Assembly: GCA_964473665.1 (NCBI GenBank)
Contig: CAYYPV010000015.1
Span: 7,793 to 71,792, forward strand
Length of the DNA stretch: 64,000 bases
Origin: an uncultured Candidatus Bathyarchaeia archaeon
Lineage (GTDB): Archaea; Thermoproteota; Bathyarchaeia; RBG-16-48-13; CAYPFQ01
Direction of reading: 5' to 3'
The number at the start of each line of letters is the position of its first letter. The stretch's first letter is position 1. The translations under genes and the position numbers were made by a program. A model generated the notes under the pieces. That model ran no database searches and had not been told where the DNA came from. It saw only the letters and a program-made list of their open reading frames with translations. Below, in pieces: positions 4,717 through 57,463 of the stretch.

Positions 4717-4756
4717 AAGTATCTCCTAATTATTTTTCATTTATAGAGTGAATGAA

Positions 4757-5134: not shown

Positions 5135-5138
5135 CTCA

Positions 5139-6149
<1,011 letters not shown>

Positions 6150-6452: not shown

Positions 6453-6550
6453 AGCGAGGTGGGGTAGCAAGGTTTAACCCGCAGGGCTCATATGGACGAT
6501 GCCCGACCTGAGAAACCCTGAGATCGGAGGTTCAAATCCTTCCCTCGCTA
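6453..6550 (+). tRNA. Initiator tRNA-Met (CAU) with a 22-nt intron (about 6493-6514)
   Basis: A1:U72, three G:C pairs closing the anticodon stem (CAGGG/CCCUG), loop CUCAUA|A, T-loop UUCAAAU, discriminator A. Confidence 0.8.
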
Positions 6551-6816
6551 TTTTTAGGCTATTTTATTCTGAGTAGTATTCATGTTCTCTTTCTATTTTT
6601 TCTACTTCTCATTTAATCATGTATTCCTTTAGCTTTTTCAAATCTTTTCGGAATCCCAGATGCACATAATGGTATTCGACATCTCTTTCCTCTGAAGTTT
6701 CCTGTCCGCACCTTTCAAGATGAATTCTTTTTTCAGCAGAATAAATCGCGTTTTCAGCTTCATCTTTCCTGTTGTCTTTTCATTTGTCGCTACTGTTTGC
6801 TTGCTGGCTGAATTGG

Positions 6817-33434: not shown

Positions 33435-34976
33435 TTGAGCGAAGAAAGAGCTAAGAAGGCGCTGATAAGCGCAATAAGCGCTGGCTACCAGTTGGATAGA
33501 GATGCCCTTTCGTTCTTGGAAGTACTTCCTGAAACGTGTGAAACTGCGGATGTCGTTAAAAAAGCTGTTGAGAAGGCGAGTGGCCTCCCGCAAAAAACTA
33601 TGTTTATTTCCCGTGACTTATTAGAGGAGGCAGCGGAGGAAATTTTACCTGTAAAAGAAACCGAGAAACCGTGCATTGTTGAAGGGATGACTGGAAAAGA
33701 GATTTTTCACCCATATGCAAAGGAAATAAGTGCAGAAATGAAAATAATCGCAGATCCGACATCAATGAACTCAACCGGATCCATAGATGACTTTCTTCAA
33801 TGTTTCCGCGACCGTTTCAACAAAATTGAGAGGTTGTTAAGACAGAGGATGGATGTAAGGGGCGCCGTTTCAATTCAAGAAGCGTTGAATGCTAGACCAA
33901 ATACAGAAGTAAAAACAATCGGTCTTGTTTATGATAGACGTGAAAGAAAGAGGACAATCATGTTACAAATAGAGGACTTGGAAAATTCAGCGACTGTGAT
34001 GATTCCCCCATCAGCGTCACAGACCGTCTTCGAGAAAGCGCAGAAAATACTCCTCGATCAAGTAATTTGCGTTTGTGTAACTAGAAGTAGAGGCGACCTA
34101 TTAATTGCAAGCGACATAATACTACCAGACATACCTGAAAGAAAACCAATACATGCGAAGGAAAATGTCTGTGTAGCATTAACGTCAGACCTTCATATAG
34201 GAAGCCGCGTATTCCTAAAAGACGTACTTAATAGGTTCATTCTTTGGTTAAACGGCAAACTTGGTTCAACTAGAGATAGGGAATTAGCAGGGTTAGTAAA
34301 ATATGTCGTAATAGCTGGAGACCTAGTTGATGGAATAGGCGTCTATCCCGAGCAGGAAAAAGAGCTTGAAATTTCTGATATCTATGAACAGTACCGGATA
34401 GCGGCTCAGTACATAGAGCAAATTCCAGATTACATTGAAGTCGTGATAATTCCAGGAAATCATGACGCAACTAGGCAGGCCCTACCGCAGCCAGCCATAC
34501 CAAAAAAATATGCTGAACCGATCTACTCGGTAAGAGAAGTCACTATGCTAGGAGATCCAGCAACAGTGCAGCTCCATGGTGTAAACCTTCTACTCTATCA
34601 TGGAAGAAGCTTAGAGGATGTAATAGGATCAGTACCGCACTTAACCTATAACCAGCCTGAAAAAGCGATGGAACTCTTGTTAAAAGCACGTCACGTAGCA
34701 CCCGTGTACGGCAAAAGAACACCGATTGCACCAGAATCACATGACCAGCTAATAATCGAGGACTGCCCAGACATTTTCCATGTCGGCCATATTCATATTA
34801 ATGGCTATGAAAGCTATCGCGGAACCTTGTTAGTAAATTCAGGTGCTTGGCAGAAGACTACAGAATATCAAAGAAAAATGGGACTAACACCGACGCCTGG
34901 AAGAGTACCGATCGTAAATTTAGCAACAATGCAATTAACGGAAATGGATTTTATGGGTTATGAACTGTCTACGTAA
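33435..34976 (+). CDS. DNA polymerase II (PolD) small subunit DP1 (TTG start)
   Basis: N-terminal DP1 domain, OB region, Mre11-like phosphoesterase motifs (DLHIGS, GDLVDG, GNHD, GHIH). 513 aa. Confidence 0.85.
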   Translation: MSEERAKKALISAISAGYQLDRDALSFLEVLPETCETADVVKKAVEKASGLPQKTMFISRDLLEEAAEEILPVKETEKPCIVEGMTGKEIFHPYAKEISAEMKIIADPTSMNSTGSIDDFLQCFRDRFNKIERLLRQRMDVRGAVSIQEALNARPNTEVKTIGLVYDRRERKRTIMLQIEDLENSATVMIPPSASQTVFEKAQKILLDQVICVCVTRSRGDLLIASDIILPDIPERKPIHAKENVCVALTSDLHIGSRVFLKDVLNRFILWLNGKLGSTRDRELAGLVKYVVIAGDLVDGIGVYPEQEKELEISDIYEQYRIAAQYIEQIPDYIEVVIIPGNHDATRQALPQPAIPKKYAEPIYSVREVTMLGDPATVQLHGVNLLLYHGRSLEDVIGSVPHLTYNQPEKAMELLLKARHVAPVYGKRTPIAPESHDQLIIEDCPDIFHVGHIHINGYESYRGTLLVNSGAWQKTTEYQRKMGLTPTPGRVPIVNLATMQLTEMDFMGYELST

Positions 34977-35538
34977 GTCCATGTGCAATAAGTCGAGCTA
35001 TCCTAACAGGTTCAGGTACTTTAGAAATTACAGATAATCTGCGTGTTATTTTTTTAGCCCAACCAAGATTTGCGCCGATAACTTCGATGTAGATTGGCAG
35101 CTCACCTGATTTTGATGTAACCATGTATATTGGTCCAAGTTTTTCAATAATTGCCCAGCGACGCTCCCAATCTTTAAAATGATCCATTAATGCATTTTTG
35201 ACAGCCACATTATCTGGTTTCTTTCTAGAAACGATAATTACAGGTATACCGAGTTTTTTGTTTACCTTGACGGGATCTACTAAATTAAATCCAGCAAAAG
35301 AAACCCCACTAAGCATTACAACGTCGGCACTGATACCTCTCAACGTTCGAAGAAGCTTATCAGTAGCATCCAAACCATCAACAGTAATCGTACAAGAACG
35401 AAAATTTTCAAGTTGCATATCTTTCATCAAAATCACAATGAGTAAAGTCTTTCCATGCCGAAATCCCTCTGCATGAAAACTGCCCTCATCAACACCAGCA
35501 ACTCTAATTGGATTTAGTTTTGAGACAATTCGGCGCAT
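34969..35538 (-). CDS. UPF0215/DUF99-family protein (internal Met start assumed)
   Basis: AGVDEGSF...ITVDGLDAT...PVIIVSRK pattern. Ends overlap both polD-DP1 and orc1. Confidence 0.5.
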   Translation of the reverse strand: MRRIVSKLNPIRVAGVDEGSFHAEGFRHGKTLLIVILMKDMQLENFRSCTITVDGLDATDKLLRTLRGISADVVMLSGVSFAGFNLVDPVKVNKKLGIPVIIVSRKKPDNVAVKNALMDHFKDWERRWAIIEKLGPIYMVTSKSGELPIYIEVIGANLGWAKKITRRLSVISKVPEPVRIARLIAHGLT

Positions 35539-36751
35539 AATCCAGCAACCGTCCAACCCAACTATCATCAATGAAAATGTTCCTAATAACACTGCTAGAA
35601 ACGCCAATTGAAACTTTCTTTGTTCGCCCGTACCGTCCAAAACTAACGACTCGTGCGTTGAGAACACCCATGATATCAAGCTCGTTTATTAGTCCGCTTA
35701 CTCTACGTTGCGTTAAAACTTCGACGCCGAGCTGACCACAAAGTTCCTTGTAAACTTCAAAGACATCGCCGGTAATGGATCCATTTGAATTAGTTTTTTT
35801 TATTAAATATACACCAAAGAGAACAAGTTTGGAGTGTAATGGGAGAGTTTTTAGAACCTCCACAACTCTGTCTTGTTCAATTTTTTCCTGCGCTTGGCGT
35901 ACATGCTCTTCCGTTACATGTTTTTCACTATGTCGTTCAGCTAACTCACCAGCAACCCTCAGTAGATCTAAAGCACGTCTAGCGTCACCGTGTTCAGCTG
36001 CAGCTAAGGCGGAACATAAGTTAATCACCCCTGCTCCCAACGCGCCGTCTAGGAAGGCCAATTTTGATCTCTCTTGAAGTATGTCATGTAGTTCAGGTGC
36101 TGAGTATGGTCTAAATACAGCTTCTTCTTCGCTTAAGCTACTTAGAACTCGTGGGTCTAATAATTCTTTAAACCGTAGATTGTTGGAAATGCCGAGTATC
36201 GAAACTCTACCGAATTTAAGGTTTTCGTTAATTCTAGTTAGCTCGTAGAGTACAGCGTCTCCCTTGGCTTTTATTAACGCGTCTACTTCGTCAAGTACAG
36301 TGATTAATAGAATGCGTTTTGACTCTAATGCGCCCTTGAATCTGTCGAAGACTTCACCGACAGCTAGCCCTGTGAACGGTATGTGTAAACCGATTGATTC
36401 GCAAAGTTGAGAGAGAACGCGGTAATCTGTGCCGGCGATTCTACAATTTACGTAACAAACTTCAATGGACGCATGCAGTTCGCGACTTTTCCTAACCAGT
36501 TTATCTAGCACGAATTTGACGACGGCCGTTTTTCCTGTTCCAGTTTTACCGTAAATAAAAATGTTTGATGGCCTAGATCCATTTAGAACTGGCGCTAGAA
36601 TACTTCCTATCATTCGCGTCTGCTCGTCTCTATGTGGTAAATAAGCTGGAATAAAATCATGACGCAAGACATCTCGGTTCTTAAAAATCCTGGATTCTTG
36701 AAGAAAGCTTTCAAAAAGATTATCAAGTAAATCTGTTCGCTCTAATGTCAT
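35504..36751 (-). CDS. cdc6: Orc1/Cdc6 replication initiator
   Basis: AAA+ Walker A IYGKTGTGKTA, Walker B LDEVD, C-terminal winged helix. 415 aa. Confidence 0.9.
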   Translation of the reverse strand: MTLERTDLLDNLFESFLQESRIFKNRDVLRHDFIPAYLPHRDEQTRMIGSILAPVLNGSRPSNIFIYGKTGTGKTAVVKFVLDKLVRKSRELHASIEVCYVNCRIAGTDYRVLSQLCESIGLHIPFTGLAVGEVFDRFKGALESKRILLITVLDEVDALIKAKGDAVLYELTRINENLKFGRVSILGISNNLRFKELLDPRVLSSLSEEEAVFRPYSAPELHDILQERSKLAFLDGALGAGVINLCSALAAAEHGDARRALDLLRVAGELAERHSEKHVTEEHVRQAQEKIEQDRVVEVLKTLPLHSKLVLFGVYLIKKTNSNGSITGDVFEVYKELCGQLGVEVLTQRRVSGLINELDIMGVLNARVVSFGRYGRTKKVSIGVSSSVIRNIFIDDSWVGRLLDYAPNCLKTKSN

Positions 36752-36881
36752 GTTTAAATCTCTCTGTTTCTAGTTGTAGAACCACAATTTCAATTGGAAT
36801 ATAAAAGCCGCTTCTACAAAAATTCGAATCCTATACCATAAAAAAATAAACAGATCAAAAGTCAAAATAATGATCTAAAGA

Positions 36882-37202
36882 TCATCTTTCAATTTGTTTA
36901 ACCAGATCCGCGAAGATACCAAAGGCCTCATTAATGACTGCTAGCGTTTTATCTGGATTAAGTTTTAGTCCCGCTCTTAAAATCAGCGCAGTTGTTTCGT
37001 CATTAGGATAGTTGCGAACTCTACCGTTTTTCCCTATAAGATAGAAGTAAACCTGCCGCGGGTGTATCCCGACAGCCTTAGCCGTAGCTGTAGGACTGGA
37101 TTCACATTGCCGGTAAACTGCCTTAAATAGTTCCAGCCTTAATTTTTTTGGCATAAAGCTAGCAATCTTATCCAAGCGTTCTGTGTTCAATAGTACGCAC
37201 AC
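36882..37202 (-). CDS. Small putative HTH protein
   Basis: 106 aa, TATAKAVGIHPRQVYFYL helix-turn-helix-like segment. Confidence 0.35.
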   Translation of the reverse strand: MCVLLNTERLDKIASFMPKKLRLELFKAVYRQCESSPTATAKAVGIHPRQVYFYLIGKNGRVRNYPNDETTALILRAGLKLNPDKTLAVINEAFGIFADLVKQIER

Positions 37203-37211
37203 GCCCCATAA

Positions 37212-37230
37212 TTTCCAATGGAAGTCTCCT
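37212..37230 (-). promoter_or_regulatory. ORB-like origin recognition box 1
   Basis: atttccaatggaagtctcc resembles the mini-ORB core TTCCAGTGGAAAC. Confidence 0.45.
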
Positions 37231-37388
37231 TATATTGGGAATACTTACGAAATGAAATTCTTAGAATAGTCTCCGTTTGCTTTTAGCATAGAAATATAAT
37301 AACGATTATTATTGAAAATTTTAGAGCTTTTAGTTGATGTTTTTACTGACGAATGATATAGCGACCTGTTTTCCAAGTTAAGGAAAGA

Positions 37389-37415
37389 TCTCCAGTAGAA
37401 ACGCAGGTGTGGAGG
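37389..37415 (+). promoter_or_regulatory. ORB-like origin recognition box 2 with a downstream G-rich element
   Basis: tctccagtagaaacgcaggtgtggagg matches the archaeal ORB core CTCCAGTGGAAACG. Confidence 0.5.
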
Positions 37416-37563
37416 TTTCGTTTTTGTTTATTCTTGGTTATTAATAAACAATTTTAACGCTGTGAAAGTTGTGAAACCCAGGTTTAATTAGACTTTTTCC
37501 GAGGTATTTTTTATATTCGCCAGCCATTTTTTGGTTATTTTTTATTTTTAACGCAACCCCTAT

Positions 37564-37578
37564 GTTTCCACTGGAAAA
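37564..37578 (-). promoter_or_regulatory. ORB-like origin recognition box 3, adjacent to an AT-rich unwinding tract
   Basis: gtttccactggaaaa is the reverse complement of TTTTCCAGTGGAAAC. Flanked by A/T runs. Confidence 0.55.
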
Positions 37579-37754
37579 TAAGTTACCCCAGTCCTATTTT
37601 ACGCCTATTTTACAAAAAACTTAGTGAAGCTGTGAATTACATGGAAAGCTATAAATCTAGTTTATTTTTTAATTTTAAACTCAAAAAAAGATAATTCAAC
37701 GATTTTAAAAATTCTTATTCACCAAAAATCTCTTTAACTTGTGAATATGTAGAG

Positions 37755-38201
37755 GTGTTAATAACACAAGAGGTTACATCTATGCCGCCACGAAAAGTTA
37801 AATTTGAAGTTCTTGATCAAGAAGGAAATCGCTTCTCGATAGCATTTGAAGGCTGCGTCACAAGAGACAGAGTTTTACAGGTAATTGATTTAATTGAATT
37901 ACTGGGCGGAGTACCTGCCGCAGAATCTAAAACTGAAAGAAATTATAACGAATTATCTAAAGTTGAACGAATTCAAGAGCTTATCAAACAACAATTTCCA
38001 GCTGGCTGGTTCGCATCAAGAGACGTGCAAGATGCGTACGAGAATACAGTTAATCAGCCTATCGGATTAAGCACAGTGGCCACTTACCTAACCAGGCTAA
38101 GTGAGAAAGGCGTACTTATTAGAGGAGGATCTGTAGCAGAGCGGCGGTATCGTCTAAGAAGAGAATTTTTACCAGAAGGATCAATGAAACTTACTACTTA
38201 G
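37755..38201 (+). CDS. Winged-helix DNA-binding protein
   Basis: C-terminal wHTH (STVATYLTRLSEKGVLIRGGSVAERRYRL). Confidence 0.5.
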   Translation: MLITQEVTSMPPRKVKFEVLDQEGNRFSIAFEGCVTRDRVLQVIDLIELLGGVPAAESKTERNYNELSKVERIQELIKQQFPAGWFASRDVQDAYENTVNQPIGLSTVATYLTRLSEKGVLIRGGSVAERRYRLRREFLPEGSMKLTT

Positions 38202-38970
38202 TGAGATGTTTTCGCAATTCTCGCTGAAATTTTTTAGCTAAACTTGCTGCCGTTTCTTCAGGGCTTTCTGCAAGGCCCTCTTTTACTGGAACCTCCGTTA
38301 GTGGAAGTTTCTTCATCATTTCCTCTACAGGGGCTCGTGCTTTTTCGCTAATGCTATAAGTATATGGAATTTTAGATCCCTCTCTTTCAACATAACCCGC
38401 ATCAGAAAGTTTCTTCATAAGGCGTGCTGTATGCTCACGTGATTTTCCAATTATTTTTTGCAGTTCTGGAGCTGGCTTTGAGCCATCTTGAATAAGTATC
38501 TCAAGAACACGCATTTCGGTTGCAGTCAAATGAGCAACCGATGTGGGACTTACTGCCAACGCTTCGGTTTCTGGCAACAATCCTTGATACCTATTGTCTA
38601 AGAGATTTATTTGATCTTGCATTGTTTTTTGCGCTCCAATTAATTTATTGGTTTGTTCACGAACAGTAATCATATGTTTAGCTACTGTTCTTGCTGCAAT
38701 TAGTGATGTTTCAACACCCGTTACTAGGCTATCTATTTTTTCACTCTGTTTACTTACCTGCACTTCTATTTTTTCGACTGATGTGCGCGTTGCTTGCGCT
38801 TCTTGTGCAATAAGGTCAGTTTTTTCACCTTGCTTCTGAAGACGATCGTGGAAGGTTGTAACAATAGCCTGCGTTACATCTTTTTCGTTTACATAACCTG
38901 CTCTTGCTTTCCCAATCCAGCGATAGAGAATAATTAACGTAGCTACCAGTACACCTACTGAGGTAATCAA
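38194..38970 (-). CDS. Membrane-anchored coiled-coil protein with C-terminal MarR-like wHTH
   Basis: N-terminal TM helix, long coiled coil, C-terminal LTATEMRVLEILIQDGSKPAPELQKIIGKSREHTARLMKKL. Confidence 0.5.
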   Translation of the reverse strand: MITSVGVLVATLIILYRWIGKARAGYVNEKDVTQAIVTTFHDRLQKQGEKTDLIAQEAQATRTSVEKIEVQVSKQSEKIDSLVTGVETSLIAARTVAKHMITVREQTNKLIGAQKTMQDQINLLDNRYQGLLPETEALAVSPTSVAHLTATEMRVLEILIQDGSKPAPELQKIIGKSREHTARLMKKLSDAGYVEREGSKIPYTYSISEKARAPVEEMMKKLPLTEVPVKEGLAESPEETAASLAKKFQRELRKHLTK

Positions 38971-39075: not shown

Positions 39076-39663
39076 TTATTTTCTTCTCTCTGGTTTAATC
39101 AGCGCGGATACTACATCGATTTTAGTTATAATTCCCGAAATATTGCCGACATCACTTAAAACTAACACAGCCGGTTCATTTCTTCCTAAAACTGTTAGAA
39201 CATCAGTTATACTCGCATTTTCAGTAACAGTTGCAAAAGGATCCTCCATTACGTCTTGAACAGGACTACCGTACACTTTTTCAGGTTCATGAGCAAGAAG
39301 TAATCGTTTCACTATAGTCGCCTCTTGAATGCTACCCGCCGTCCTCCTTCCTCTTAGTACTGGTAATTGTGAAACACCATGTCTTCTCATTATTTCAACG
39401 GCTCTTCGAATGCTGTCAGTAATATCAACTGTAATAACTGGAGTATGCATAATGTCCTTCGCCGCTTTCTTTTCCTTCGAAACTGTAATTGCAGTAATAA
39501 TTTTCCTAAGAGTTGACAGACGAGGGTCCACCTGGCCTGATTCAATCCTTGCTATAAGTGCTTGGCTTACTCCCGCGCGTTTTGCAAGCTCCTTTTGAGT
39601 TAACCCAGTTAATTTACGCAGTCTCCGTATATCCTCTGCGCTAGGTAATCTTATTGTTGCCAA
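39076..39663 (-). CDS. HTH (XRE-family) plus CBS-pair domain regulator
   Basis: LTQKELAKRAGVSQALIARIESG HTH followed by two CBS motifs. Confidence 0.7.
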   Translation of the reverse strand: MATIRLPSAEDIRRLRKLTGLTQKELAKRAGVSQALIARIESGQVDPRLSTLRKIITAITVSKEKKAAKDIMHTPVITVDITDSIRRAVEIMRRHGVSQLPVLRGRRTAGSIQEATIVKRLLLAHEPEKVYGSPVQDVMEDPFATVTENASITDVLTVLGRNEPAVLVLSDVGNISGIITKIDVVSALIKPERRK

Positions 39664-40074: not shown

Positions 40075-42399
40075 TTGATAAGTGAAATGAAGCGAGCGGC
40101 GGTTATACGCATTGCTGGGATAGTTCAGGGAGTAGGCTTCAGACCGTTTGTTTATAGAAGTGCCGTAAAAAATGATTTGCTCGGTTACGTGACAAATCTT
40201 GAAGACGCTACAGTAGAGATAACCGTTGAAGGCGAAGAAGGAAACATTAAACAATTCATTAAAGTACTTAAAAGTGAGGCGCCCCCCGTTGCAAACATTC
40301 AATCTATTAAAATCTCTTGGCAATCATATGAAAGATGTTTTAACAAGTTTGAAATAAAAAAAAGTAAGAAAAAACGTCTCTTCTACGGGTTCATGATACC
40401 GCCAGATATAGGTATATGCCATGAATGTATTGAAGATATTTTAAGTCCAGAGAAAAGACGCTGGAACTACTATCCATTCACATGTTGCGCCCATTGCGGG
40501 CCTAGGTTTACTGCAACATATGAATCGCCATATGATCGTGTTCGAACAAATATGCGTGATTTCCCACTATGCGAAAAATGTCAGCATGAGTATGAAGATC
40601 CGATAAATAGACGCTTTCACGCACAAGGTATATGTTGCCCAAATTGTGGGCCTCAAATTGCGCTCTACACTTCTAATGGCAAAAAAGTGAAAACAGGTAA
40701 TCCTCTCCAAGAAGCCGCCAAGCTCCTTGATGAAGGTTATATAGTCGCAATTAAGGGCATAGGTGGTGTTCATATTGCCGCAAAAACAAAAGATGATAGA
40801 ATTCTTGAAAAGATTCGAAAAAGGCGTAGAAGACCAAATCAACCGTTCGCTGTAATGTCACCCAACGTCGACATAATTAAAACATACGCAGCTGTTTCGC
40901 AGGAAGAAGAAAAACTATTAACCTCCTGGCAAAGACCCATTGTACTTCTAAGAAAATCCTCAAACTATTACTTATCTGAGCTGGTCTCTCCAGGATTAGA
41001 TACAATAGGTGTAATGTTACCTTATACTGGAATTCATCTCATTCTCTACCAATTTGTAAAAGAACCAGCCCTAATAATGACTAGCGGCAACGATCCCGGT
41101 CTACCAATGGTCATCACACATAAAGAAGCTTTCAAAACCCTAGGACGAATAGTCGATTATCTCCTCCTTCATAACCGCGAAATCGTAAACAGATGTGACG
41201 ACTCTGTACTTAGACTAATTAATGGAACACCGACATTCATACGACGCTCACGCGGCTATGTTCCGTCACCAATAAAAATACCCATTAATGATGAAATAAC
41301 CGCTATTTCAGTAGGCGCTGAGCTTAGAAATACTGGCGCAATTATTTACAAAGGAAACTGTTACTTAACTCAACATATAGGTGATATTGAAAACCTTGAG
41401 ACGCTTAACCATTTAGAGCAATCTTTAAGGCATTTATCTGTCCTTCTAGGAGTTAAGAATGATGTAGATGTTATCGCATGTGATTTACACCCAAATTACA
41501 TTACATCGCGTTTAGCGCAAGAGCTATCGCAGAAAAAAAACATACAACTAGTTCAAGTTCAACATCACCATGCTCATATTACTTCAGTAATGGCCGAAAA
41601 CAGAGTTCCACCAGACCAGTCAGTTATAGGAATAGCAATGGACGGCATCGGATATGGGCCTGATGGCACCGTTTGGGGAGGGGAAATTCTTGAAACCGCA
41701 TATCAAAGCTATGTTAGACGCGGCCACTTACAATTACAGCCCATGCCTGGAGGAGATCTATGCACGTATTACCCAGTAAGAATGTTCGTATCAACTCTAA
41801 GTTCAGTTCTGTCAGAGCAAGAAATTCGCGACATCACAAGAAGCCACGTAAAAAAGGGTCTTATACGCGGACAAAGAGAACTGTCAACAATTTTTAAACA
41901 GATTAAAAACTCAACAACAACAAAAACAACAAGTTCTGGTCGCTTATTAGATGCCATCGCTGCAGCTACGGGAATTTGCTATAAAAGAACATACGAAGGT
42001 GAACCTGCTATGCGGCTTGAAACTGCAGCAAACGAGGGAGACCCATATAAAATAAAGTTAAAACCTAAGATTTTACAGATAGATGGTAACTATGTGCTAG
42101 ACACCAGCCAACTCATATATGATATTATTACACTAGACCGCCAGAGGATTGTTGATATATGCGCAGCGGCCCAGCGGGCCTTCGCTATAGGTATGGCTGA
42201 AATGGCTATACGGGTAGCAAACGACCATGGAATACGCACAATAGCCATATCTGGAGGCGTTGGCGTTAACTTTAAAATCACACGTGATATTGAAGACTAC
42301 GTGCGGGGTCACATGTTGCATTGTATCCGTCACAGAATAGTGCCGCCAGGCGACGGCGGCTTAGCCTTAGGGCAAGCTATTTCAGCGTGTTTAATGTGA
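40075..42399 (+). CDS. hypF: [NiFe]-hydrogenase maturation carbamoyltransferase HypF (likely ATG start at 40087)
   Basis: Acylphosphatase domain (GIVQGVGFRPFVY), two CxxC...CxxC zinc-finger pairs, YrdC-like and Kae1-like domains. 774 aa. Confidence 0.85.
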   Translation: MISEMKRAAVIRIAGIVQGVGFRPFVYRSAVKNDLLGYVTNLEDATVEITVEGEEGNIKQFIKVLKSEAPPVANIQSIKISWQSYERCFNKFEIKKSKKKRLFYGFMIPPDIGICHECIEDILSPEKRRWNYYPFTCCAHCGPRFTATYESPYDRVRTNMRDFPLCEKCQHEYEDPINRRFHAQGICCPNCGPQIALYTSNGKKVKTGNPLQEAAKLLDEGYIVAIKGIGGVHIAAKTKDDRILEKIRKRRRRPNQPFAVMSPNVDIIKTYAAVSQEEEKLLTSWQRPIVLLRKSSNYYLSELVSPGLDTIGVMLPYTGIHLILYQFVKEPALIMTSGNDPGLPMVITHKEAFKTLGRIVDYLLLHNREIVNRCDDSVLRLINGTPTFIRRSRGYVPSPIKIPINDEITAISVGAELRNTGAIIYKGNCYLTQHIGDIENLETLNHLEQSLRHLSVLLGVKNDVDVIACDLHPNYITSRLAQELSQKKNIQLVQVQHHHAHITSVMAENRVPPDQSVIGIAMDGIGYGPDGTVWGGEILETAYQSYVRRGHLQLQPMPGGDLCTYYPVRMFVSTLSSVLSEQEIRDITRSHVKKGLIRGQRELSTIFKQIKNSTTTKTTSSGRLLDAIAAATGICYKRTYEGEPAMRLETAANEGDPYKIKLKPKILQIDGNYVLDTSQLIYDIITLDRQRIVDICAAAQRAFAIGMAEMAIRVANDHGIRTIAISGGVGVNFKITRDIEDYVRGHMLHCIRHRIVPPGDGGLALGQAISACLM

Positions 42400-43501
42400 T
42401 GTCACAATAATCATGAATTTTTAGAGGCATCCCAAGCTCAACAAGCTTAAGACCCCTCATGCACTCTCGATAAAATTAAGTGACTCCACAAAATAAAATG
42501 CCCATTTTAGTTTAAAATGAAAAAATTTACCTTGAAAGCAAATAGGTCTGTCTTCTTAGTATCGATAATGAGTATCCAATAAAGAATTGCTAGAAAGATA
42601 CTGGTGAAACTTCTAAAGTTGAAAGGACAAAATCATTTGATCAATAGTGATTAAAGATGGTCGTGATGAAGGATGGAAATGTAACAAGTCATTGGAAACA
42701 AAGGACCTTAATTTTTAAAATAGAAAGAGTTATAATTTATTACAAAATAAATTCAATTTTTACTAGGAAAAGAATGAACCGGAATATCTTCTAATAATAT
42801 CCAACCTGATAATAATTACTTTATCGCGAAATAATTTTGATCTCTTATTAATCTTCGCATATTACCATCTGAATTTATCCAATAAACTCTATTTTTTATA
42901 AAAAATACTATTTTATAAAAAGTTATGCGAATATTAATTATTCAGTTATTAAGCAAACGAATAATAATTATAAAGTATGGATTATATTTGGTCAAATATT
43001 ATACGGGAAAATTAAATTCTATTAAGAAGACCGGGGAAATTAGCTAATTTAATATTTAATTCTATTAAGAAGACTAAGGAAATCAGCTGATTTAATCAAG
43101 AGCTCATTAGTGGACATAAATTTTACTTAAATTTATACCCAGACTAAGTATGACAAATGCAGAACTTTCCTGAAGGGAAGTTTACACACTTGAAAAGTAG
43201 GAAAAACCCTTTGGACGAAAGAGCCAAAATAAAACTTTCAGGTAAAGGAATTAAAGAACTATGATTCGTTTTTTGGTTAGCTAATATTAATCTTAAAATT
43301 ATCCCTGATATTACATTGCACTTGTTAAAGAATAATAACGTAGCTTAGCCTTCGGTGAAACTATTTCAGCGTGTTTAATGTGATGTCACAATATGTCACG
43401 GATTTTTAGAGGCATCCTAAGCTCGACAAGCTTATTCAGCCCCCTTTCCTCAGGAATCAAAGAATTATAATTCTCCACTCGTTTAGCTAATAGTGCGCTT
43501 A

Positions 43502-43573
43502 AAAATCACACGTGATATTGAAGACTATAAGTGGAGTCACATGTTACATTGGATCTGTCACAGAATAGTGTAA
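43502..43573 (+). pseudogene. Fragment copying the C-terminal 23 codons of hypF (KITRDIEDY..HMLH.I.HRIV*)
   Basis: In-frame nucleotide similarity to hypF 42273-42345, ending in a stop. Confidence 0.5.
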
Positions 43574-45724
43574 TCGCTTAGCGCTGGGACAAGCTAATGT
43601 ACGTGTTATATGTGATGCTACATTATATCACGAGTTTTTCGACAAGTATACAGGCTTAAGCAAACTGAACGATTCTTTAGTATTAGTTTCCTATCTTCAT
43701 TTGCTACATTATCTAAGATTGGCTTGGTGCTTTGGCGTTATTCACCTGCTTAGTTCTCTATCTGTTTCACTACGGCCGTTAGTAACTAAGACATCTTAAA
43801 GAGCCTGCCACCTTTGGAAGGTATAAACCCACACCCTAAACCAGTCCGTCAAAGGCTAGAATGTCTAAAATGATAGGTATAGTTCAAGATGTTCCGATAT
43901 ACAACTATTTTCCTTATCTGCTTTCAGGTATCCATAGAATTTAACTATGTTCAATCTTTAGTTGCATAGACCTCTCCATACAGCCAGTAACTATAATGCT
44001 AAATAGGTTTAAGGGCTTTAACAATCTTCTAATGGAAACTAGTTCTGTCATTAAAAATTTTTCCGAAATGGTTTATGAGTATACTTGTCCGATCTTTTTG
44101 ACCGATGAAAGAACGGCCACTGTCTATCTTTGTTTGAGCAAAGCAGGATAAGATATGTTGTGAAGCTGCTTTTCTTTAACCTCATTAACTAATATGAATA
44201 TTTGCTTTATTCCTTCAGGGTTAAGCATTTAGTTCACTTTATTACTTTATTAGATTGTAAATGGGCAATGTTGACAATTGAGTGGATTGCGGCCATTTTT
44301 TTGACCATGTGCAATGGAAAATACGTCATCTATAACATGTAAAGTAATTAAAGAACCGTGATTCGCTTTTTCTTTACTGAACTCTAATAATAAATCATGA
44401 ATAACATTAAGGTTTACACGCAGAGTCCATATACAGCAGACTAGCAAATAGAATAGTGCCGACAGGCGATGACTACTTAGCCTTAGGGCAGTCATTTCAG
44501 TATGTTTAACGCGACATTATTAGACATAACAATTGTTTCTAAGGATAACTGTAATTTTAAGTACTGCTCCCGCCTTTAAATCTGTGATATCACATTATAT
44601 CACATGTTTACGACAGCCTTCTGGGCCTAATACGCTTCCTAAGATCCTTCTAGTGCCCCCTCGGTCAAATTAAGCAATTCTACAAAATAAATAGTCACAT
44701 ATTAGCCTAAAGATGGAAAGATATTGGATGGATTCATCGTGAAGCGATACGACTTTGTCTTCTTAGACTCTACAATAATGATTAATAAACGAATTGATAA
44801 GGCACTTTGGTGAAACTCCAGCGGAAGGAGGATTTCTTTTTATCAATTAGGAAAGCAATGAAGGGATTTTTATTGGAAAATGTAATGTGTCTTAGGGCAA
44901 AATGAATTTGATTTTGAAGAAATAAGATCATTTGTAAAAATGAAAAATAATGGAATTTTATGTATATATAAATAGATTACAAAACAAATGCTGGATTTAT
45001 TCAAAAATAAAAGCATGGACCTTCTTCAAATTGGTGAGTTATGGTGATTTATGCGAACAATTTTTAGATTTCTTATTAATTTTACATATTCGATGATTTG
45101 AATTTATTTAATAAACTCAATTTATGATAATTATTTTATAACTATTGGCCGTTTTCTATTTAGAAGATGTTATCAGTACTGATGGCATCAGTACCAGTTA
45201 TTCAATCATTAAGCAAAATGTGGTAATAGTACGAAAATAGAGTATATGATCCAAATACGTTGAGATATACCGAAATTCTAAGAATGCGGGCTGAAGAGAT
45301 TTAGGATAATCTGACTAAGATTTCAGGATGGATACTAATTTGATTTGTCTAAATTTATACTTAGACTAATTATAGTAAATGAATGATCATTGAAATGTAA
45401 CTTTATATTTGGAAAGCAAAAGAGAATTCATTTAGGAGAAAGGTTAGAGATAGAATTTTGGATAAAGGAATTAAAGAACTGCTATTCTCTTTTGTCTAGC
45501 TAATACCAATATTGAAACCAGTATAAAATTGAGATTTATGGTGTAGTAACATGCTAAATTGTACATACCACTTACAGAGCTGGCGGGCAATACCGTTAAG
45601 GCAAGTTATTTTAGTGATTTATTGTGATATCATAAAATATCACTGCTATTTTTCTTCGGGATTTTTATGGCGTATAATTTGAATTATATATTATTTCGGT
45701 CTAAATATGTGATGTCACATTATA

Positions 45725-46219
45725 TCACATGTTTTTCGACAACTTTCTAGGCTCAACAAGCTTCTTTAGGCTCTCCTCAAGCTCTTGCTGTAGGATCGTA
45801 GTTACTTTAAGATCTTCATTTGTGGCTTCTCCCGCTTCTATTCTTCCCCATATTTCATGGTATGCTTCAGCGTAACGTTTCAGATTATACGCAACTTCTG
45901 CATATTTATCAAACGTTGGATCCTCAAAAAAGCCTACATATCCTAGGAGAAAAAGAGTATAAATTGTTTGAATGACATTTCTACGAGCCTGTTTTAAAGT
46001 CCTCGTGAAGGCCCCGCGGCTTAAACCTTCCTTTTTTAGCCTTAATTTAACTTTTTCACGGTATTTTAGGCGTTTTTCTATATTTTCTTCAGATAAAATG
46101 TCAATTAACAAAGTTTCTAGCTGTATTTTTGTTAAATTACTATTTTCTAGAAGTATTTTTGTTATTGGGTCGTTTAAAATACGTTTTATCCAATTCTGAA
46201 CAGAATTTAAGTCGCTCAA
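45725..46219 (-). CDS. Hypothetical 164-aa protein whose 3' end lies inside a repeat unit; paralog remnants are present at the other repeat copies
   Basis: Intact ORF. C-terminal ...KKLVEPRKLSKNM is encoded by the repeat. Degenerate copies (..KLVELRMPLKI..) at 42400-42460 and 43380-43470 on the minus strand. Confidence 0.45.
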   Translation of the reverse strand: MSDLNSVQNWIKRILNDPITKILLENSNLTKIQLETLLIDILSEENIEKRLKYREKVKLRLKKEGLSRGAFTRTLKQARRNVIQTIYTLFLLGYVGFFEDPTFDKYAEVAYNLKRYAEAYHEIWGRIEAGEATNEDLKVTTILQQELEESLKKLVEPRKLSKNM

Positions 46220-48588: not shown

Positions 48589-51500
48589 TTGCAAATAATA
48601 GCGACAGAAAATTACAAGCAATACTTTATGCAGATGGAAAAACAACTCGAAAAACTCTACGCTGTTGCTAAGCAAGCTAGAATTAAAGGACTTGATCCAA
48701 ACCTTGAACCAGAGCCCCGCATTGCAAAAGACCTCGCAGAACGTGTTGAGGGACTCGTCGGCCCAAAAGGAATAGCAGAAAGGATACAAGAATTAAGTGG
48801 AACAATGTCTCAAGAGATGATGAGCTTCAAAATTGCGCAAGAAACCATGTACGGAAAATTCGGTCACATGGATGAAAATCAAGCAGCGGAGCAAGCAATA
48901 CGAACTTCACTAGCCATTTTAACGGAAGGCATAACCGCAGCACCACTACAGGGGATTTCAAGCGTAAAAATAAAGCAAAATTTCGATCGAACCAAATATT
49001 TGGCCATATACTTTGCTGGACCAATTCGTTCAGCTGGCGGTACAGAACAAGCATTGATTCTAGTTATAAGCGACTTCGTCCGGCGAATATTAGGTCTTGA
49101 TAAATACAAACCAACAGAATATGAGATCAAACGCTTCATCGAAGAGATCAGAATTTACGAAAGGGATGTATCACGCTTTCAGTATCATGAATCTGACGGA
49201 TTCCTCGAAAATGTGTTACATAATTTACCAATCGAAGTGACTGGAGTAGGCACTGACCCTATTGAAGTTGTATCATTCAGAAACCTTCCAAGAATTGAGA
49301 CAAATAATGTTAGAGGAGGGGCCCTTCGGGTTGTTAACGATGGTATCGTAGGCAGATCAAGAAAAGTTATGAAAATAATAGACGAACTTGGAATTGAAGG
49401 ATGGGATTGGTTAAGAATAGCACGTGAATTAAAAGAAGAAGAGGCAGCCGAAGTAGCAGAATTCATGTTTATGGAAGATGTAGTTGCTGGAAGATCAGTT
49501 TTCTCCTTTCCATCAAGAAGCGGTGGCTTCAGGCTTCGTTACGGGCGCTCAAGAAATACTGGCCTAGCAGCTATCGGTGTACATCCTGCCACAATGGCCG
49601 TCCTACAAAATTTCCTCGCAATAGGCACACAATTACGCATTGAAAAACCCGGAAAAGCAGGTGTGGTAACTCCAGTAGATACAATCGAGCCTCCAATCGT
49701 TAGGTTAAAAGACGGCTCAGTTATCAGAATTGAATCAATTGAGGAAGCAGAGAAACTTAGAGACAGCATTGATAAAATTCTCTTTGTCGGCGATTTGTTA
49801 ATAGCGTTTGGGGAGTTTCTCGAAAATAATAAACCCTTAGCACCATCGGGATTTTCAGAAGAATGGTGGATTGAATTTCTAAATACGATCATAGCAAAAA
49901 ACTATGATAACTCTGTTGAGGAAGTAGCCGCTGCAATAGGTATACCATTAGCACGATTACAATCTTTACTAAAAAATTTCCTCACAATAAGACCAACTGC
50001 TGAAGAAGCTGTAACCATGACCCAAAAATTGAAAATTCCATTACATCCGCACTATACTTACTTCTGGCACGCAATATCTCTTGACGACTTCTTAAAACTT
50101 AGGAAAGACTTCCAAGAAGCAGAACAACTAACAGAAAACGGGATGATTACAAAGATCGAATTATCACTAAAACCAGACATTAAAAAAATTCTTGATTCAC
50201 TCTGCATACCTCACATAGTTAAGAATAAAAAAATAATACTGATTGAAGAAGCGCCTGCAGTTGCTTTCAGCCTAGGCTTAGTTAACCCTGAAGAAAAAAT
50301 CAAAACAGCAAAAACAACTTTGGAAGCGATTAAAGAACTAACAGGGTTCACTATTATAGAAAAAGCACCCACATCCATAGGTACAAGAATGGGACGCCCA
50401 GAAAAAGCAAAGCAAAGAGCAATGACACCCCCAGTCCACGTTTTATTTCCAGTAAGTCTCGCTGGCGGTTCACAAAGAAACATTCTTGAAGCTATTAAAA
50501 AAGGCTTCATCGAGGTTGAAATTGCCCGAAGAAGATGTCCAAACTGTAGTGAAGTAACCTACAAAATTAAATGCCCGCTTTGCGGCGCTGATACAAAGCG
50601 TGAACAGATATGCCCCATCTGCAATAGAACTCTAAAGGAAGAAACATGCCCAATATGCAAAGTTCGCACAGTATTCTTTGAAAAAAAAACAATAAACATT
50701 AAGGAATTATTCAATGAAGCTTGCAAAAAACTAAACATAACTCCACCAGAGCTCGTAAAGGGAGTAAAAGGTCTTACAAGCGAAACAAAAATACCTGAAC
50801 AGATTGAAAAAGGGCTTCTTCGAGCAAAAAATAACGTCCAAGTATTCAAAGATGGAACAATTCGATTTGATGCGACAAATGTACCATTAACGCATTTCAA
50901 ACCAACAGAAATAAACATCTCTATAGAAAAACTTCATGAACTAGGTTACGATTGTGATATGTATGGAGATTCGCTACAAACTCCAAATCAAATTTGCGAA
51001 TTAAAAGTTCAAGATATAATTATTCCAGAAAAATCTGCAAAATATCTAATCGATATCTCACACTTCATCGATGAAGCACTACAAAAAATTTACAATCTTC
51101 CTCCATATTATAACGCAACAAGAGAAGAAGATTTGCTTGGACATTTAATTCTAGGTTTAGCACCTCACACCTCAGCAGGAGTTATAGGACGGATCATTGG
51201 TTTCACAAAGGCAAACGCTTGCTACGCCCATCCACTTTGGCATGCAGCAAAAAGAAGAGACTGTGATGGAGATGAAGACGCGATAATTTTAGTTCTAGAT
51301 GCTCTAATCAACTTCTCTAAGGAATACCTGCCATCGCAAATCGGCGGAATGATGGACGCACCTTTAATAATAACGCCGATCATTAACCCATTTGAAGTAG
51401 ACGATGAGGCTCACAATATAGACGCTGCATCTAAATATCCAATAGACTTTTACGAAAAAACTCTGCTTGCAGCGGATCCAAAAATTGCCGCGCAAAATAT

Positions 51501-52020
51501 TGACTCAATAGCTCATAGACTAGGCACTCCCGAACAGTATGAAGGTCTACACTATACACATGCAACTACAGACATTAATGCTGGCAATCTTGAGAGTGTC
51601 TATAAGAAACTAGGCGCGATGACTGAGAAAATGGAAGCACAACTTGAACTTGCAGAAAAAATAAGCGCGGTTGACGTTAAGGAAGTAGCCAAAAGAGTTC
51701 TAACAACGCACTTCATTAGAGACATATCGGGCAATCTCAAAGCATTTGCAGGACAGAAATTCCGGTGCATGAAGTGTAATACAAAATTCAGAAGAATACC
51801 AATGGTAGGCAAATGTCCAAGGTGCGGCGGAAAAATCTCTCTAACGGTTCATAGAGGTGGTATTGAGAAGTACCTAGAAGCAGCCGGCAATCTAGCAAAA
51901 AAATACAAAATTGAGGAATACTACATTGACAGAATTTCATTAATAGGAGACGAAATTGAAATGCTTTTTAAATCATCTATTGAAAAGAAAAAGCAACCAA
52001 GTCTAACTGAGTTTATCTAG
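48589..52020 (+). CDS. DNA polymerase II (PolD) large subunit DP2 (start possibly an internal ATG near 48628)
   Basis: DP2 N-terminal pattern (...AKQARIKGLDPNLEPE...AERVEGLVGP), central catalytic region, C-terminal zinc fingers (CPNC...CPLC...CPIC...CPIC; CMKCN...CPRCG). 1143 aa, no intein. Confidence 0.9.
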   Translation: MQIIATENYKQYFMQMEKQLEKLYAVAKQARIKGLDPNLEPEPRIAKDLAERVEGLVGPKGIAERIQELSGTMSQEMMSFKIAQETMYGKFGHMDENQAAEQAIRTSLAILTEGITAAPLQGISSVKIKQNFDRTKYLAIYFAGPIRSAGGTEQALILVISDFVRRILGLDKYKPTEYEIKRFIEEIRIYERDVSRFQYHESDGFLENVLHNLPIEVTGVGTDPIEVVSFRNLPRIETNNVRGGALRVVNDGIVGRSRKVMKIIDELGIEGWDWLRIARELKEEEAAEVAEFMFMEDVVAGRSVFSFPSRSGGFRLRYGRSRNTGLAAIGVHPATMAVLQNFLAIGTQLRIEKPGKAGVVTPVDTIEPPIVRLKDGSVIRIESIEEAEKLRDSIDKILFVGDLLIAFGEFLENNKPLAPSGFSEEWWIEFLNTIIAKNYDNSVEEVAAAIGIPLARLQSLLKNFLTIRPTAEEAVTMTQKLKIPLHPHYTYFWHAISLDDFLKLRKDFQEAEQLTENGMITKIELSLKPDIKKILDSLCIPHIVKNKKIILIEEAPAVAFSLGLVNPEEKIKTAKTTLEAIKELTGFTIIEKAPTSIGTRMGRPEKAKQRAMTPPVHVLFPVSLAGGSQRNILEAIKKGFIEVEIARRRCPNCSEVTYKIKCPLCGADTKREQICPICNRTLKEETCPICKVRTVFFEKKTINIKELFNEACKKLNITPPELVKGVKGLTSETKIPEQIEKGLLRAKNNVQVFKDGTIRFDATNVPLTHFKPTEINISIEKLHELGYDCDMYGDSLQTPNQICELKVQDIIIPEKSAKYLIDISHFIDEALQKIYNLPPYYNATREEDLLGHLILGLAPHTSAGVIGRIIGFTKANACYAHPLWHAAKRRDCDGDEDAIILVLDALINFSKEYLPSQIGGMMDAPLIITPIINPFEVDDEAHNIDAASKYPIDFYEKTLLAADPKIAAQNIDSIAHRLGTPEQYEGLHYTHATTDINAGNLESVYKKLGAMTEKMEAQLELAEKISAVDVKEVAKRVLTTHFIRDISGNLKAFAGQKFRCMKCNTKFRRIPMVGKCPRCGGKISLTVHRGGIEKYLEAAGNLAKKYKIEEYYIDRISLIGDEIEMLFKSSIEKKKQPSLTEFI

Positions 52021-56137: not shown

Positions 56138-57463
56138 CTATTTACCCTCGACAAGTATGCGAAATTCACGGGCCGTCAGCTGAAGCCCACCAGTAAAAGA
56201 ATCATACGTTGCTCTACCAGCAACTATAATCTCTTTACCTAAAATATCTTTACTTGCATTTTTAATTGGAGCTGTATCATCACCTGTCTTGGAAACAAGT
56301 TCCAATGCCTTTTCTGCAGACATACCGAGCATACTTTCAGCTTGTTGGCCGTAAAAAACAGCAACAATATTACCTGAATCATCTTTAAGGGTTGTTTTAA
56401 GGATTATACGGTGTACTGGTGTCTTTACAGATCCACATCGCTCGCAAAATGTGCCTTCAGGCTTTTGTATAATTTTCTTAAAACAAAATGGACAAGCTAA
56501 ATAAATTGAAGCTTTTTCTGCTAGATTTGCAATTTTAGCTTGAACATAAACGACATCGCCATTTTTTAGCTCAGCAATCTTAGCAATCTTCAATCCCACT
56601 TCAGTAACATAGGAAGGTTTTGCAGTAAAAACCGAGACCGCAACATTTCCGTTGATATGAATCTCAACTTCATCGCTCATTCCTTTTTTTGTTCTCGCGC
56701 CCATTATTTGTAAGGTATCGCCCGCCTTTACATCTTTAATCACCTCAACCTTATCGTTCCAAAAAACAGCTGTAACATTTCCAGTATCATCAACTAATCT
56801 CACTCGAGAAACTCGCCCCACATCTTTTTCTCTTTGGAAAATAGAAACTGGAAATGCCTGTGCTACTGAGGCAGTAATATTCACATGCTTCTCATTCACT
56901 TTCAATTCATTAATCTTCTTAAAAAACTCATTAACTTCTGGAAACTCATCTACTTTAAGTCCAGGTGGATTAACAATAACTTCGCCGCGCATACCCAAAT
57001 GAAGCTCAGGTTTACCGTCTAATCCTTCGCGCACATAACCGTGAAGAATTTTAACCACTTGCCCTTGTATTATTTGTTTTTGGCTTACAAGTTCAACTTT
57101 TTCATTCCAAAAAATAACATTCAAAGTCCCTGTTCTATCAGCCACGAGCACCTTAAGCATTTTCCCAACAGTTTTATCAGACTTTAGAAATGTTTGAGAA
57201 GGATAAATACAGATTACCCGACCGGTAATTGACATATCATTAACACCAAGAACTAAATCGCGAACGCTGATTTCGGTCTTAACAACCCCTTTCTCAGTTA
57301 GATTAACACCTAACTCAGAAGCAACAATGTAAGCGGCACCGTCATCGGTAAGTAGCCCACCAACATCTTTCTTTTTCTGTGTAATCATTTTTTTAACGTC
57401 GTCCCGCCTCAAATCTGATCGTTCAGCAAGAATACGTACAACAATTTGATCCAGCGTAAGCAA
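56138..57463 (-). CDS. Replication protein A (multi-OB-fold ssDNA-binding protein with zinc ribbon)
   Basis: Three OB-fold repeats plus CPFCFKK...CERCG zinc finger. 441 aa. Confidence 0.75.
   Translation of the reverse strand: MLTLDQIVVRILAERSDLRRDDVKKMITQKKKDVGGLLTDDGAAYIVASELGVNLTEKGVVKTEISVRDLVLGVNDMSITGRVICIYPSQTFLKSDKTVGKMLKVLVADRTGTLNVIFWNEKVELVSQKQIIQGQVVKILHGYVREGLDGKPELHLGMRGEVIVNPPGLKVDEFPEVNEFFKKINELKVNEKHVNITASVAQAFPVSIFQREKDVGRVSRVRLVDDTGNVTAVFWNDKVEVIKDVKAGDTLQIMGARTKKGMSDEVEIHINGNVAVSVFTAKPSYVTEVGLKIAKIAELKNGDVVYVQAKIANLAEKASIYLACPFCFKKIIQKPEGTFCERCGSVKTPVHRIILKTTLKDDSGNIVAVFYGQQAESMLGMSAEKALELVSKTGDDTAPIKNASKDILGKEIIVAGRATYDSFTGGLQLTAREFRILVEGK

Follow-up and report, generated by a model that had tools for sequence, protein, structure and literature searches.

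A predicted Orc1-type replication origin and its conserved box array in the Bathyarchaeia

Where does chromosome replication begin in the Bathyarchaeia, an uncultured and globally abundant class of archaea? The question is raised by an AT-rich intergenic interval (positions 37203–37754) in a 64,000-nucleotide stretch of DNA, hereafter the window, from an uncultured Candidatus Bathyarchaeia archaeon (assembly GCA_964473665.1, contig CAYYPV010000015.1). An earlier reading of the letters alone (the sequence-only reading) had proposed that the interval is a replication origin of the Orc1 type, with three repeats resembling origin recognition boxes (ORBs) beside the genes for the initiator Orc1/Cdc6 and the DNA polymerase PolD. 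Literature searches found no paper on the replication origins of the Bathyarchaeia, experimental studies included; automated databases of the DoriC type may already hold predictions for such metagenome-assembled genomes (MAGs). Archaeal origins typically consist of a DNA unwinding element (DUE) that is rich in A+T, is flanked by ORBs and located next to an orc1 gene (PMC5333045, PMC4164010). The locus was accordingly assessed for at least two consensus ORB repeats, inverted ORBs around an AT-rich element, an adjacent cognate orc1/cdc6 gene, and conservation of the arrangement in related genomes. Three significant full-length ORBs, an adjacent orc1 gene, a box array found in 54 of 65 relatives, and a change-point in third-codon skew on the array support the proposal, and it is highly probable that the locus is a chromosomal Orc1-dependent origin (oriC1 type).

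Origin recognition boxes, spacers and strand composition

The ORB core known from the literature (TCCAGTGGAAAC) is matched with no more than one mismatch at two places in the 64 kb, 37391 (+) and 37564 (−), both within the interval, and a match with two mismatches is located at 37211 (−). Matches to the core alone are not significant: the whole window contains seven with at most two mismatches versus 4.6 expected, and 20 of 100 shuffled sequences reach seven. A 24-nt position weight matrix (PWM) was built from 61 sites in related genomes, with the window left out. The sole criterion for choosing these sites was a 12-nt core with no more than one mismatch, and 51–56 of the 61 display GGGGT at +15 to +19 although this G-string played no part in the selection. 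The G-string is known from the ORBs of Sulfolobaceae and Methanomicrobia, and the published form that includes it is TCCA[GC]T[GT]GAAA[CT][AG]A[AT]GGGGT (PMC4164010). All three boxes of the window agree with this form, each running on, three bases past the core, into a G-run. They score 23.4–33.1 bits with the PWM (table 1), whereas the next-best site in the window scores 11.9 bits. The maximum averaged 11.9 bits in 200 first-order Markov shuffles of the 64 kb, with a top value of 22.4 bits, so that all three boxes exceed every shuffle. The same scan found no further ORB site above 12 bits and no mini-ORB arrays in the window.

The boxes alternate in orientation (−, +, −) and lie within 377 bp, which bears out the arrangement given in the sequence-only reading. 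That reading had located the boxes at 37212–37230, 37389–37415 and 37564–37578, thereby covering the three cores but missing the G-strings of boxes 1 and 3. It had also described an AT-rich interval of ~550 bp, and the A+T content is indeed 69.7% versus 60.3% for the window; the interval is flanked by divergent genes. An Rfam scan of positions 36500–38300 returned no known noncoding RNA, only sub-threshold chance matches (ncr952 with 21.8 bits versus a gathering score of 100, and mir-86).

Conservation of the array was analyzed in 80 orc1 loci from contigs of one genome per species and in six closer loci from metagenomes (related orc1 loci are labeled with L-numbers). Within the 73 loci of the Bathyarchaeia type (814 kb), 197 of 208 ORB matches above 15 bits are located within 720 bp upstream of orc1. 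The box order, read in the orientation of orc1, is + − + in 54 out of 65 loci with enough upstream sequence, and the boxes are typically found at approximately −600, −360, and −180 from the orc1 start. The boxes of the window follow the same order at −826, −661, and −473, so that box 3 corresponds to the distal (+), box 2 to the middle (−), and box 1 to the proximal (+) box of the class. The core of box 1 does not differ among the window, L081, and L082. A perfect 10-nt direct repeat (CCTATTTTAC, twice with an 11-bp period at 37593–37613), located just outside box 3 toward the p139 gene (table 1), is not conserved in either of these two relatives.

Several relatives display altered arrays. Two Bathyarchaeia (L009 and L071) lack the distal box and keep the middle and proximal boxes together with their spacer, and an Odinarchaeia locus (L080) contains a single divergent box pair of this kind around a 394-bp spacer with 73% A+T. 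In one subgroup of the Bathyarchaeia (L060, L066, and L068) the middle and proximal ORBs stay upstream of orc1 and the distal ORB is found ~5.5 kb downstream of it (+5.1 to +5.6 kb from the start), together with two genes that adjoin it in the window (the p139 and TM-MarR genes, table 1); judging from these gene orders, the origin region was split by a rearrangement inside the distal–middle spacer. The same spacer carries a 590-bp insertion in L083/L084 (distal ORB at 4065, middle ORB at 4680). The open reading frame (ORF) of 142–154 aa called within it at 4147–4611 has no Pfam match, and the Orc1 of the host relative is 70% identical. A fourth, weaker ORB-like site (15–21 bits) at −36 to −78 from the orc1 start was identified in seven relatives (L005, L015, L019, L035, L041, L050, and L053) and might function in autoregulation; nothing comparable precedes the orc1 start codon in the window.

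The two spacers of the array differ in their conservation. Among 61 loci, the middle–proximal spacer hardly varies in length (median 160 bp) and exceeds all other segments in A+T content (72.6% versus 57% for the loci, 15.5 points above the locus), whereas the distal–middle spacer is longer and more variable (median 222 bp, 66% A+T). The middle–proximal spacer also retains internal motifs (TCTAAAAT..TTTAACAATAATTATTA and TCAGAGTATATTTCTT) after removal of sequences with more than 70% identity; the equivalents in the window are located at 37293–37326 and 37258–37276. Inverted boxes flank AT-rich DNA on both sides of box 2 in the window (70.7% and 71.6% versus 60.3% A+T), and within the array duplex stability is lowest in a 40-mer between boxes 1 and 2 (37283–37323, −40.9 kcal/mol). 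Boxes 1 and 2 with the spacer between them are taken as the core origin because of this low stability, the fixed length, the AT-richness and the motifs of the spacer, and because the pair is kept where the distal box is gone. This core spacer is most likely the region of unwinding and MCM loading.

The sequence-only reading had placed the unwinding element in the T-tracts at 37500–37560, between boxes 2 and 3. The tracts are present but are not the least stable DNA of the interval (−46 to −50 kcal per 40 bp, with no local minimum), which makes the core spacer the likelier candidate. The box 2–box 3 spacer is nevertheless a possible alternative DUE, since its strand asymmetry is conserved (A-rich in the orientation of orc1 in 98% of the 61 loci, corresponding to a T-rich + strand in the window) and the Orc1 protein of Aeropyrum pernix prefers T-rich single strands (PMC8287685).

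Table 1. Features of the predicted origin and of its surroundings (positions in the window; bit scores from the PWM of related genomes).
Feature	Position	Strand	Remarks
ORB box 1 (orc1-proximal)	37201–37224	−	CTTCCATTGGAAATTATGGGGCGT; dyad core and G-string; 23.4 bits
ORB box 2 (middle)	37389–37412	+	TCTCCAGTAGAAACGCAGGTGTGG; 28.1 bits
ORB box 3 (distal)	37554–37577	−	TTTCCAGTGGAAACATAGGGGTTG; perfect core and GGGGT; 33.1 bits of a possible 37.8
Core spacer, box 1–box 2	37225–37388		164 bp, 70.7% A+T; box cores face inward
Box 2–box 3 spacer	37413–37553		141 bp, 71.6% A+T; T-rich on + strand; G-strings face inward; holds a TTCAC doublet
Tandem TTCAC doublet	37462–37475	−	TTCACAACTTTCAC; matches class-wide peak ~110 bp from distal ORB
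Tandem TTCAC doublet	37624–37636	−	TTCACAGCTTCAC; matches class-wide peak ~65 bp beyond distal ORB, other side
Palindrome TTCAC-N18-GTGAA, predicted operator	37718–37745		spans TATA-like AAGTTAAAG; 37 bp upstream of p139 ATG
p139, 139-aa protein of an uncharacterised family	37782–38201	+	divergent from ORB array; N-terminal beta-beta-alpha and C-terminal winged helix-turn-helix (wHTH)
orc1/cdc6 initiator gene, 415 aa	35504–36751	−	Pfam Cdc6_lid, Cdc6_C, AAA; NCBIfam equivalog NF001625, 530 bits versus cutoff 501
TATA-like box of orc1	36796–36807	−	CTTTTATATTCC; 45 bp upstream of ATG; conserved in L081 and L082; read from the sequence
Small lineage-specific gene, 106 aa from GTG start	36882–37202	−	between box 1 and orc1 promoter
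Endo_dU gene	34969–35679	−	Pfam; between DP1 and orc1
PolD small subunit DP1	33435–34976	+	Pfam; convergent with orc1
PolD large subunit DP2	48589–52020	+	Pfam PolC_DP2_N, central and cat domains; 11 kb beyond origin; same position in L085
Membrane-anchored MarR/TrmB-type wHTH protein (TM-MarR)	38194–38970	−	Pfam; anchor is an N-terminal hydrophobic stretch, read from the sequence
HTH_3 + CBS protein	39076–39663	−	Pfam/NCBIfam
HypF	40075–42399	+	Pfam
RPA-like protein	56138–57463		
Lhr helicase	58244–61129		
Type IA topoisomerase	11441–13558		

Skew was computed gene by gene at third codon positions on the + strand for the window and for L085, a 20-kb segment from the 1.25-Mb contig of a relative with 84–86% nucleotide identity; GC skew over all positions tracks gene orientation and was uninformative. 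The third-codon GC skew (GC3) is positive in nearly every gene between 10.8 and 36.7 kb and negative in nearly every gene between 38.2 and 63 kb, whatever the orientation of the gene, and the corresponding AT skew (AT3) is its mirror image. The best breakpoint of a two-segment fit with an orientation term is at 37,492 (left +0.17, right −0.26, orientation +0.11), and breakpoints at 36,816 and 38,198 fit nearly as well; the best single GC3 change-point of the window coincides with the ORB array. A skew minimum had been expected at the origin in the sequence-only reading. This expectation failed: the cumulative GC3 skew has its maximum, and the AT3 skew its minimum, at 36.8–38.2 kb in the window, and the same switch is present in L085. 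The oriC of Pyrococcus abyssi is located at an MK-disparity peak (PMC4164010), and Ori3 of Haloferax volcanii at a local maximum of the third-codon and noncoding cumulative GC skew, “unlike bacteria” (PMC12999951). The sign of the skew is no argument against an origin because H. volcanii Ori3 displays the same maximum. If forks leave the array, leading strands would be C- and A-rich at third positions.

When 554 genes from 60 related loci were pooled, regression revealed no effect of the side on skew (R = 0.003), so that the switch does not extend to the class as a whole. Another skew change, weaker than the first, was observed near 10.6 kb, where seven consecutive minus-strand genes (874–10539) lack the strong positive GC3 skew of the following 26 kb; the 1240-aa protein encoded at 6817–10539 has no Pfam match at E ≤ 1e-5.

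TTCAC repeats and the divergent p139 gene

Two further elements, both overlooked in the sequence-only reading and new in this analysis, are associated with the array: repeats of TTCAC(A), and the conserved divergent gene for a 139-aa protein (p139). The 580-bp interval contains four copies of TTCACA versus 0.34 expected (P = 4e-4), and ~0.003–0.006 occurrences are expected in the interval for each of the doublet and palindrome patterns listed in table 1. The repeats hold fixed positions across 61 relatives. Measured from the distal ORB in the orientation of orc1, TTCACA peaks at approximately −165, −65, +35, and +110 (80, 47, 31, and 83 matches versus a background of 0.45 per bin). The class-wide site at −165 is the palindrome across the TATA-like element just upstream of the divergent p139 gene; most relatives retain this palindrome in the form TTCACAAGTTATAG...GTGAA. 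A second palindrome (TTCAC-N14-GTGAA, TTCACCGACAGCTAGCCCTGTGAA) at 36353–36376 lies inside the orc1 coding sequence and may be due to chance (0.35 expected per 64 kb).

The p139 gene adjoins the distal ORB in 65 out of 84 loci, including four in which this box is displaced from orc1 (L060, L066, L068, and L070). Upstream of orc1, TTCAC/GTGAA reaches a density of 7.8 per kb where the p139 gene is present versus 2.8 per kb, the background value, where it is absent, and by this measure the repeats are confined to loci that carry the gene. The simplest reading of this pattern is that p139 binds the TTCAC sites, regulates its own gene, and sits on both sides of the distal ORB.

The sequence-only reading had mentioned three transcription regulators, one of them membrane-anchored, on this side of the array. 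Domain matches confirm two of them, the TM-MarR protein and the HTH_3 + CBS protein; the third (37755/37782–38201) is p139, which has no family match and a wHTH domain in its structure model. Translation of p139 more likely starts from the ATG at 37782, which is preceded by GAGGT, than from the GTG at 37755. The protein has no match in Pfam or NCBIfam up to E = 1 and no sequence match among PDB chains, and the family models of these two databases do not assign it to the MarR/Fur/PadR-type regulators. Its family comprises 442 cluster representatives at E ≤ 1e-3. The AlphaFold2 model has a mean confidence (pLDDT) of 74 overall and 84–88 in the C-terminal half, where the wHTH resembles the DNA-binding domains of Fur, PadR, and RosR (Foldseek E ~4e-3, TM 0.4), a resemblance at the level of the fold to generic wHTH regulators. 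The TM-MarR gene is conserved beside the p139 gene, with tblastn matches in 61 related loci.

Gene neighborhood and alternative explanations

The orc1 gene is located 450 bp from box 1. Its product is 100% identical to NCBI proteins from MAGs and 60–73% identical to many Orc1 proteins of the Bathyarchaeia/Bathyarchaeota. A small gene, which the sequence-only reading had labeled a small HTH gene, lies between orc1 and box 1. The label is plausible but unproven: the protein has no family in Pfam or NCBIfam and no sequence relatives in the PDB, and its confidently modeled all-helical structure (pLDDT 91) is weakly XRE-like (best fold matches at E ≥ 0.36). It is represented by seven clusters in a library of 5.8 billion proteins and is conserved only in L081 (88% amino acid identity) and L082 (56%), with differences mostly at third codon positions. 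A T-run follows the small gene, and past it orc1 retains a TATA-like box of its own; the small gene is thus an insertion, specific to this lineage, that separates the array from the orc1 promoter and shifts the array ~295 bp from orc1. Larger insertions at the same place move the array 2.9–4.5 kb away from orc1 in L070 and L072, with the entire array of L070 at 2.9–3.2 kb upstream. Another TATA-like element (AATATAAGG, 37226–37238) precedes the GTG start of the small gene (37202) by ~30 nt, with the core of box 1 in between; if the mRNA is leaderless, Orc1 at box 1 would occupy the promoter of the small gene.

The arrangement of DP1, orc1, and origin in the sequence-only reading holds for the identity of the neighbors. 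It does not hold as a Pyrococcus-type operon, as DP1 is convergent with orc1 and the Endo_dU gene lies between them. DP1 is likewise placed in over 70 related loci, and DP2 is also nearby, at 48.6 kb. The presence of DP1, DP2, the RPA-like protein, Lhr, and a topoisomerase in the window places the origin in a neighborhood of replication genes. On the far side of hypF, a 3.3-kb AT-rich stretch (42400–45725, GC 0.30–0.35) without long ORFs contains approximately three degenerate tandem units of ~1.1 kb. The 3′ end of hypF (42305–42409) recurs within it at 43343–43393, 43533–43570, and 44450–44490, together with GTGATGTCACAWTATATCAC-like repeats, and the stretch is missing from L085, where the next gene follows within 92 bp of hypF. 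It looks like the remnants of serial integrations at the 3′ end of hypF.

A model for the locus can be outlined from these data. Each ORB would be occupied by one Orc1 monomer, whose winged helix would contact the dyad core and whose AAA+ domain would contact the G-string through its initiator-specific motif (ISM). Boxes 1 and 2, whose cores face the AT-rich spacer of ~160 bp, would form the core origin, at which ATP-bound Orc1 would recruit MCM and the duplex would open. Box 3, the TTCAC(A) repeats, and the p139 gene would form an accessory module: p139 probably binds the TTCAC sites, would repress its own promoter via the palindrome at 37718–37745, and, from sites flanking box 3, may modulate origin use. 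The insertion of the small gene would have moved the array as a whole, leaving it undisturbed.

Several observations weigh against the model. Both spacers of the window are equally AT-rich (~71%), so that the assignment of the DUE rests on the relatives, and other intergenic regions of the window are less stable than either spacer. That the ORB cores (the winged-helix side) face the loading zone is reportedly the case in Sulfolobus; in two Thermococcus loci (L077 and L078) analyzed for the polarity of ORBs relative to the DUE, the matches are weak or probably within the DP1 coding sequence. The skew extremum has the reverse sign of that known from bacteria and P. abyssi and agrees only with H. 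volcanii Ori3, 45 other Bathyarchaeia loci show no consistent switch, and the genes at 0.9–10.5 kb depart from the skew of the left arm. The link between p139 and TTCAC is one of co-occurrence only. The genome may contain further origins elsewhere, and canonical origins can be dispensable, as Thermococcus kodakarensis reportedly grows without Cdc6 or oriC (PMC5663688).

The array might mainly serve the transcriptional control of orc1, the small gene, and the p139 gene, or be a dormant origin, with replication starting elsewhere or by recombination. The interval is a divergent promoter region with TATA-like elements by box 1 and within the TTCAC palindrome, box 1 is flanked by such an element and by the GTG start of the small gene, and some relatives carry the extra ORB-like site close to the orc1 start; the growth of T. 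kodakarensis and a skew sign unlike that of bacteria point the same way. An operator, however, needs no fixed 160-bp AT-rich spacer with internal motifs at 150–200 bp from any start codon, as found in the relatives. The TATA-like box of orc1 lies past the inserted gene, the skew change-point falls on the array, and regulation and origin function are mutually compatible, all of which leaves pure transcriptional control or dormancy unlikely. Chance matches in AT-rich intergenic DNA would account for the core-only counts, which a fifth of the shuffled sequences reach, but this explanation is refuted by the full-length PWM scores of three boxes within 377 bp, above all 200 shuffles, and by the conservation of their position and orientation in relatives; its probability is negligible.

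Archaeal mobile elements often carry orc1 genes, and the small inserted gene is lineage-specific while the AT-rich insertion with repeated hypF ends lies only 5 kb away, so that orc1 and the ORBs might derive from an integrated plasmid or virus replicon. Such a derivation is extremely improbable given that HypF, HTH-CBS, TM-MarR, p139, the ORBs, orc1, Endo_dU, and DP1 are syntenic across many genomes, that Orc1 fits the chromosomal equivalog model NF001625, and that housekeeping replication genes (DP1, DP2, RPA, and topoisomerase) are found all around. The skew pattern raises the further possibility of a zone of fork convergence with incidental ORBs, since a switch of GC3 from + to − would be expected of a bacterial terminus, the GC3 maximum and AT3 minimum recur in L085, and the extremum at the oriC of P. 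abyssi is of the other kind (MK peak, PMC4164010). A terminus is nonetheless very improbable: the array is conserved across the class and the skew switch is not, orc1-adjacent ORB arrays mark the origins of all archaea studied (PMC5333045, PMC12141716), and an origin confirmed in an archaeon, H. volcanii Ori3, coincides with a maximum of third-codon skew (PMC12999951).

With an Orc1-dependent chromosomal origin as the preferred explanation, a more far-reaching proposal is that p139 is an unrecognised class-wide origin factor of the Bathyarchaeia that acts on ORB-interleaved TTCAC(A) sites and modulates Orc1/MCM, at an origin located at a maximum of third-codon GC skew with a replication-linked mutational asymmetry opposite to that of bacteria. 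This combined proposal is speculative and, on present evidence, doubtful.

Comparison with known origins and implications

The anatomy of the window fits the definition of an archaeal origin, and its closest match is oriC1 of Sulfolobus. Sulfolobus oriC1 comprises three ORBs, an inverted pair of which flanks a DUE of ~130 bp with an essential internal non-ORB motif (ucm), next to orc1-1 (PMC12141716). Sulfolobus/Saccharolobus oriC1 and the window thus have in common three ORBs that combine dyad core and G-string, an inverted pair around an AT-rich region of ~130–160 bp, a directly adjacent orc1 gene, and a conserved non-ORB element in the spacer. Unlike in oriC1, every adjacent pair of boxes in the window array is inverted (+ − +) and the distal box is surrounded by TTCAC repeats with a linked wHTH gene. 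No UBP-like protein came to light, in an analysis that included no search with a UBP sequence. The Thermococcales oriC, including that of Pyrococcus, shares with the window the ORB core TCCAGTGGAAA, an adjacent cdc6/orc1 gene, and nearby PolD genes (PMC1904270, PMC4164010). It differs in its mini-ORB arrays, which the window lacks, and, for P. abyssi, in the sign of the skew extremum; unlike in the cdc6-DP1-DP2 island of Pyrococcus, DP1 of the window is convergent with orc1 across Endo_dU and DP2 is 11 kb off on the other side. Halophiles have a different ORB consensus, TT[TC]CACC[GCT]GAAAC (PMC4164010), and H. volcanii Ori3 resembles the predicted origin of the window in that the third-codon cumulative GC skew peaks locally there (PMC12999951).

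Conserved genes on the other side of the origin are also known from haloarchaea, where the oapABC cluster faces orc1 across the origin and is encoded on the other strand (PMC7921747). The likeness to the p139 cluster is positional only, and p139 is a wHTH protein that matches no named family, whereas OapA is reportedly a small GTPase. Small DNA-binding proteins with a defined motif in or beside an origin include Sulfolobus UBP at ucm and WhiP at oriC3 (PMC12141716). The putative p139 would share these properties, with sites that flank the distal ORB, unlike ucm inside the core spacer; if it is an origin factor, p139 could be a functional counterpart of UBP or of bacterial modulators of the IHF/Fis/SeqA type.

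The evidence supports a canonical ORB/Orc1 origin of known type, to which this analysis adds a class-wide map, p139 with its TTCAC arrays, and an inverted skew. The strongly “inverted” third-codon skew is the second example after the very recent observation in Haloferax. Together, the locus and the class-wide consensus provide an origin map for the Bathyarchaeia that consists of three ORBs, a core spacer fixed at 160 bp, and an accessory module. The PWM can be used to orient MAGs of the Bathyarchaeia and set their start, and to anchor peak-to-trough estimates of growth rate from metagenomes, and the wHTH family with its TTCAC arrays represents a testable candidate for an origin accessory factor in this class.

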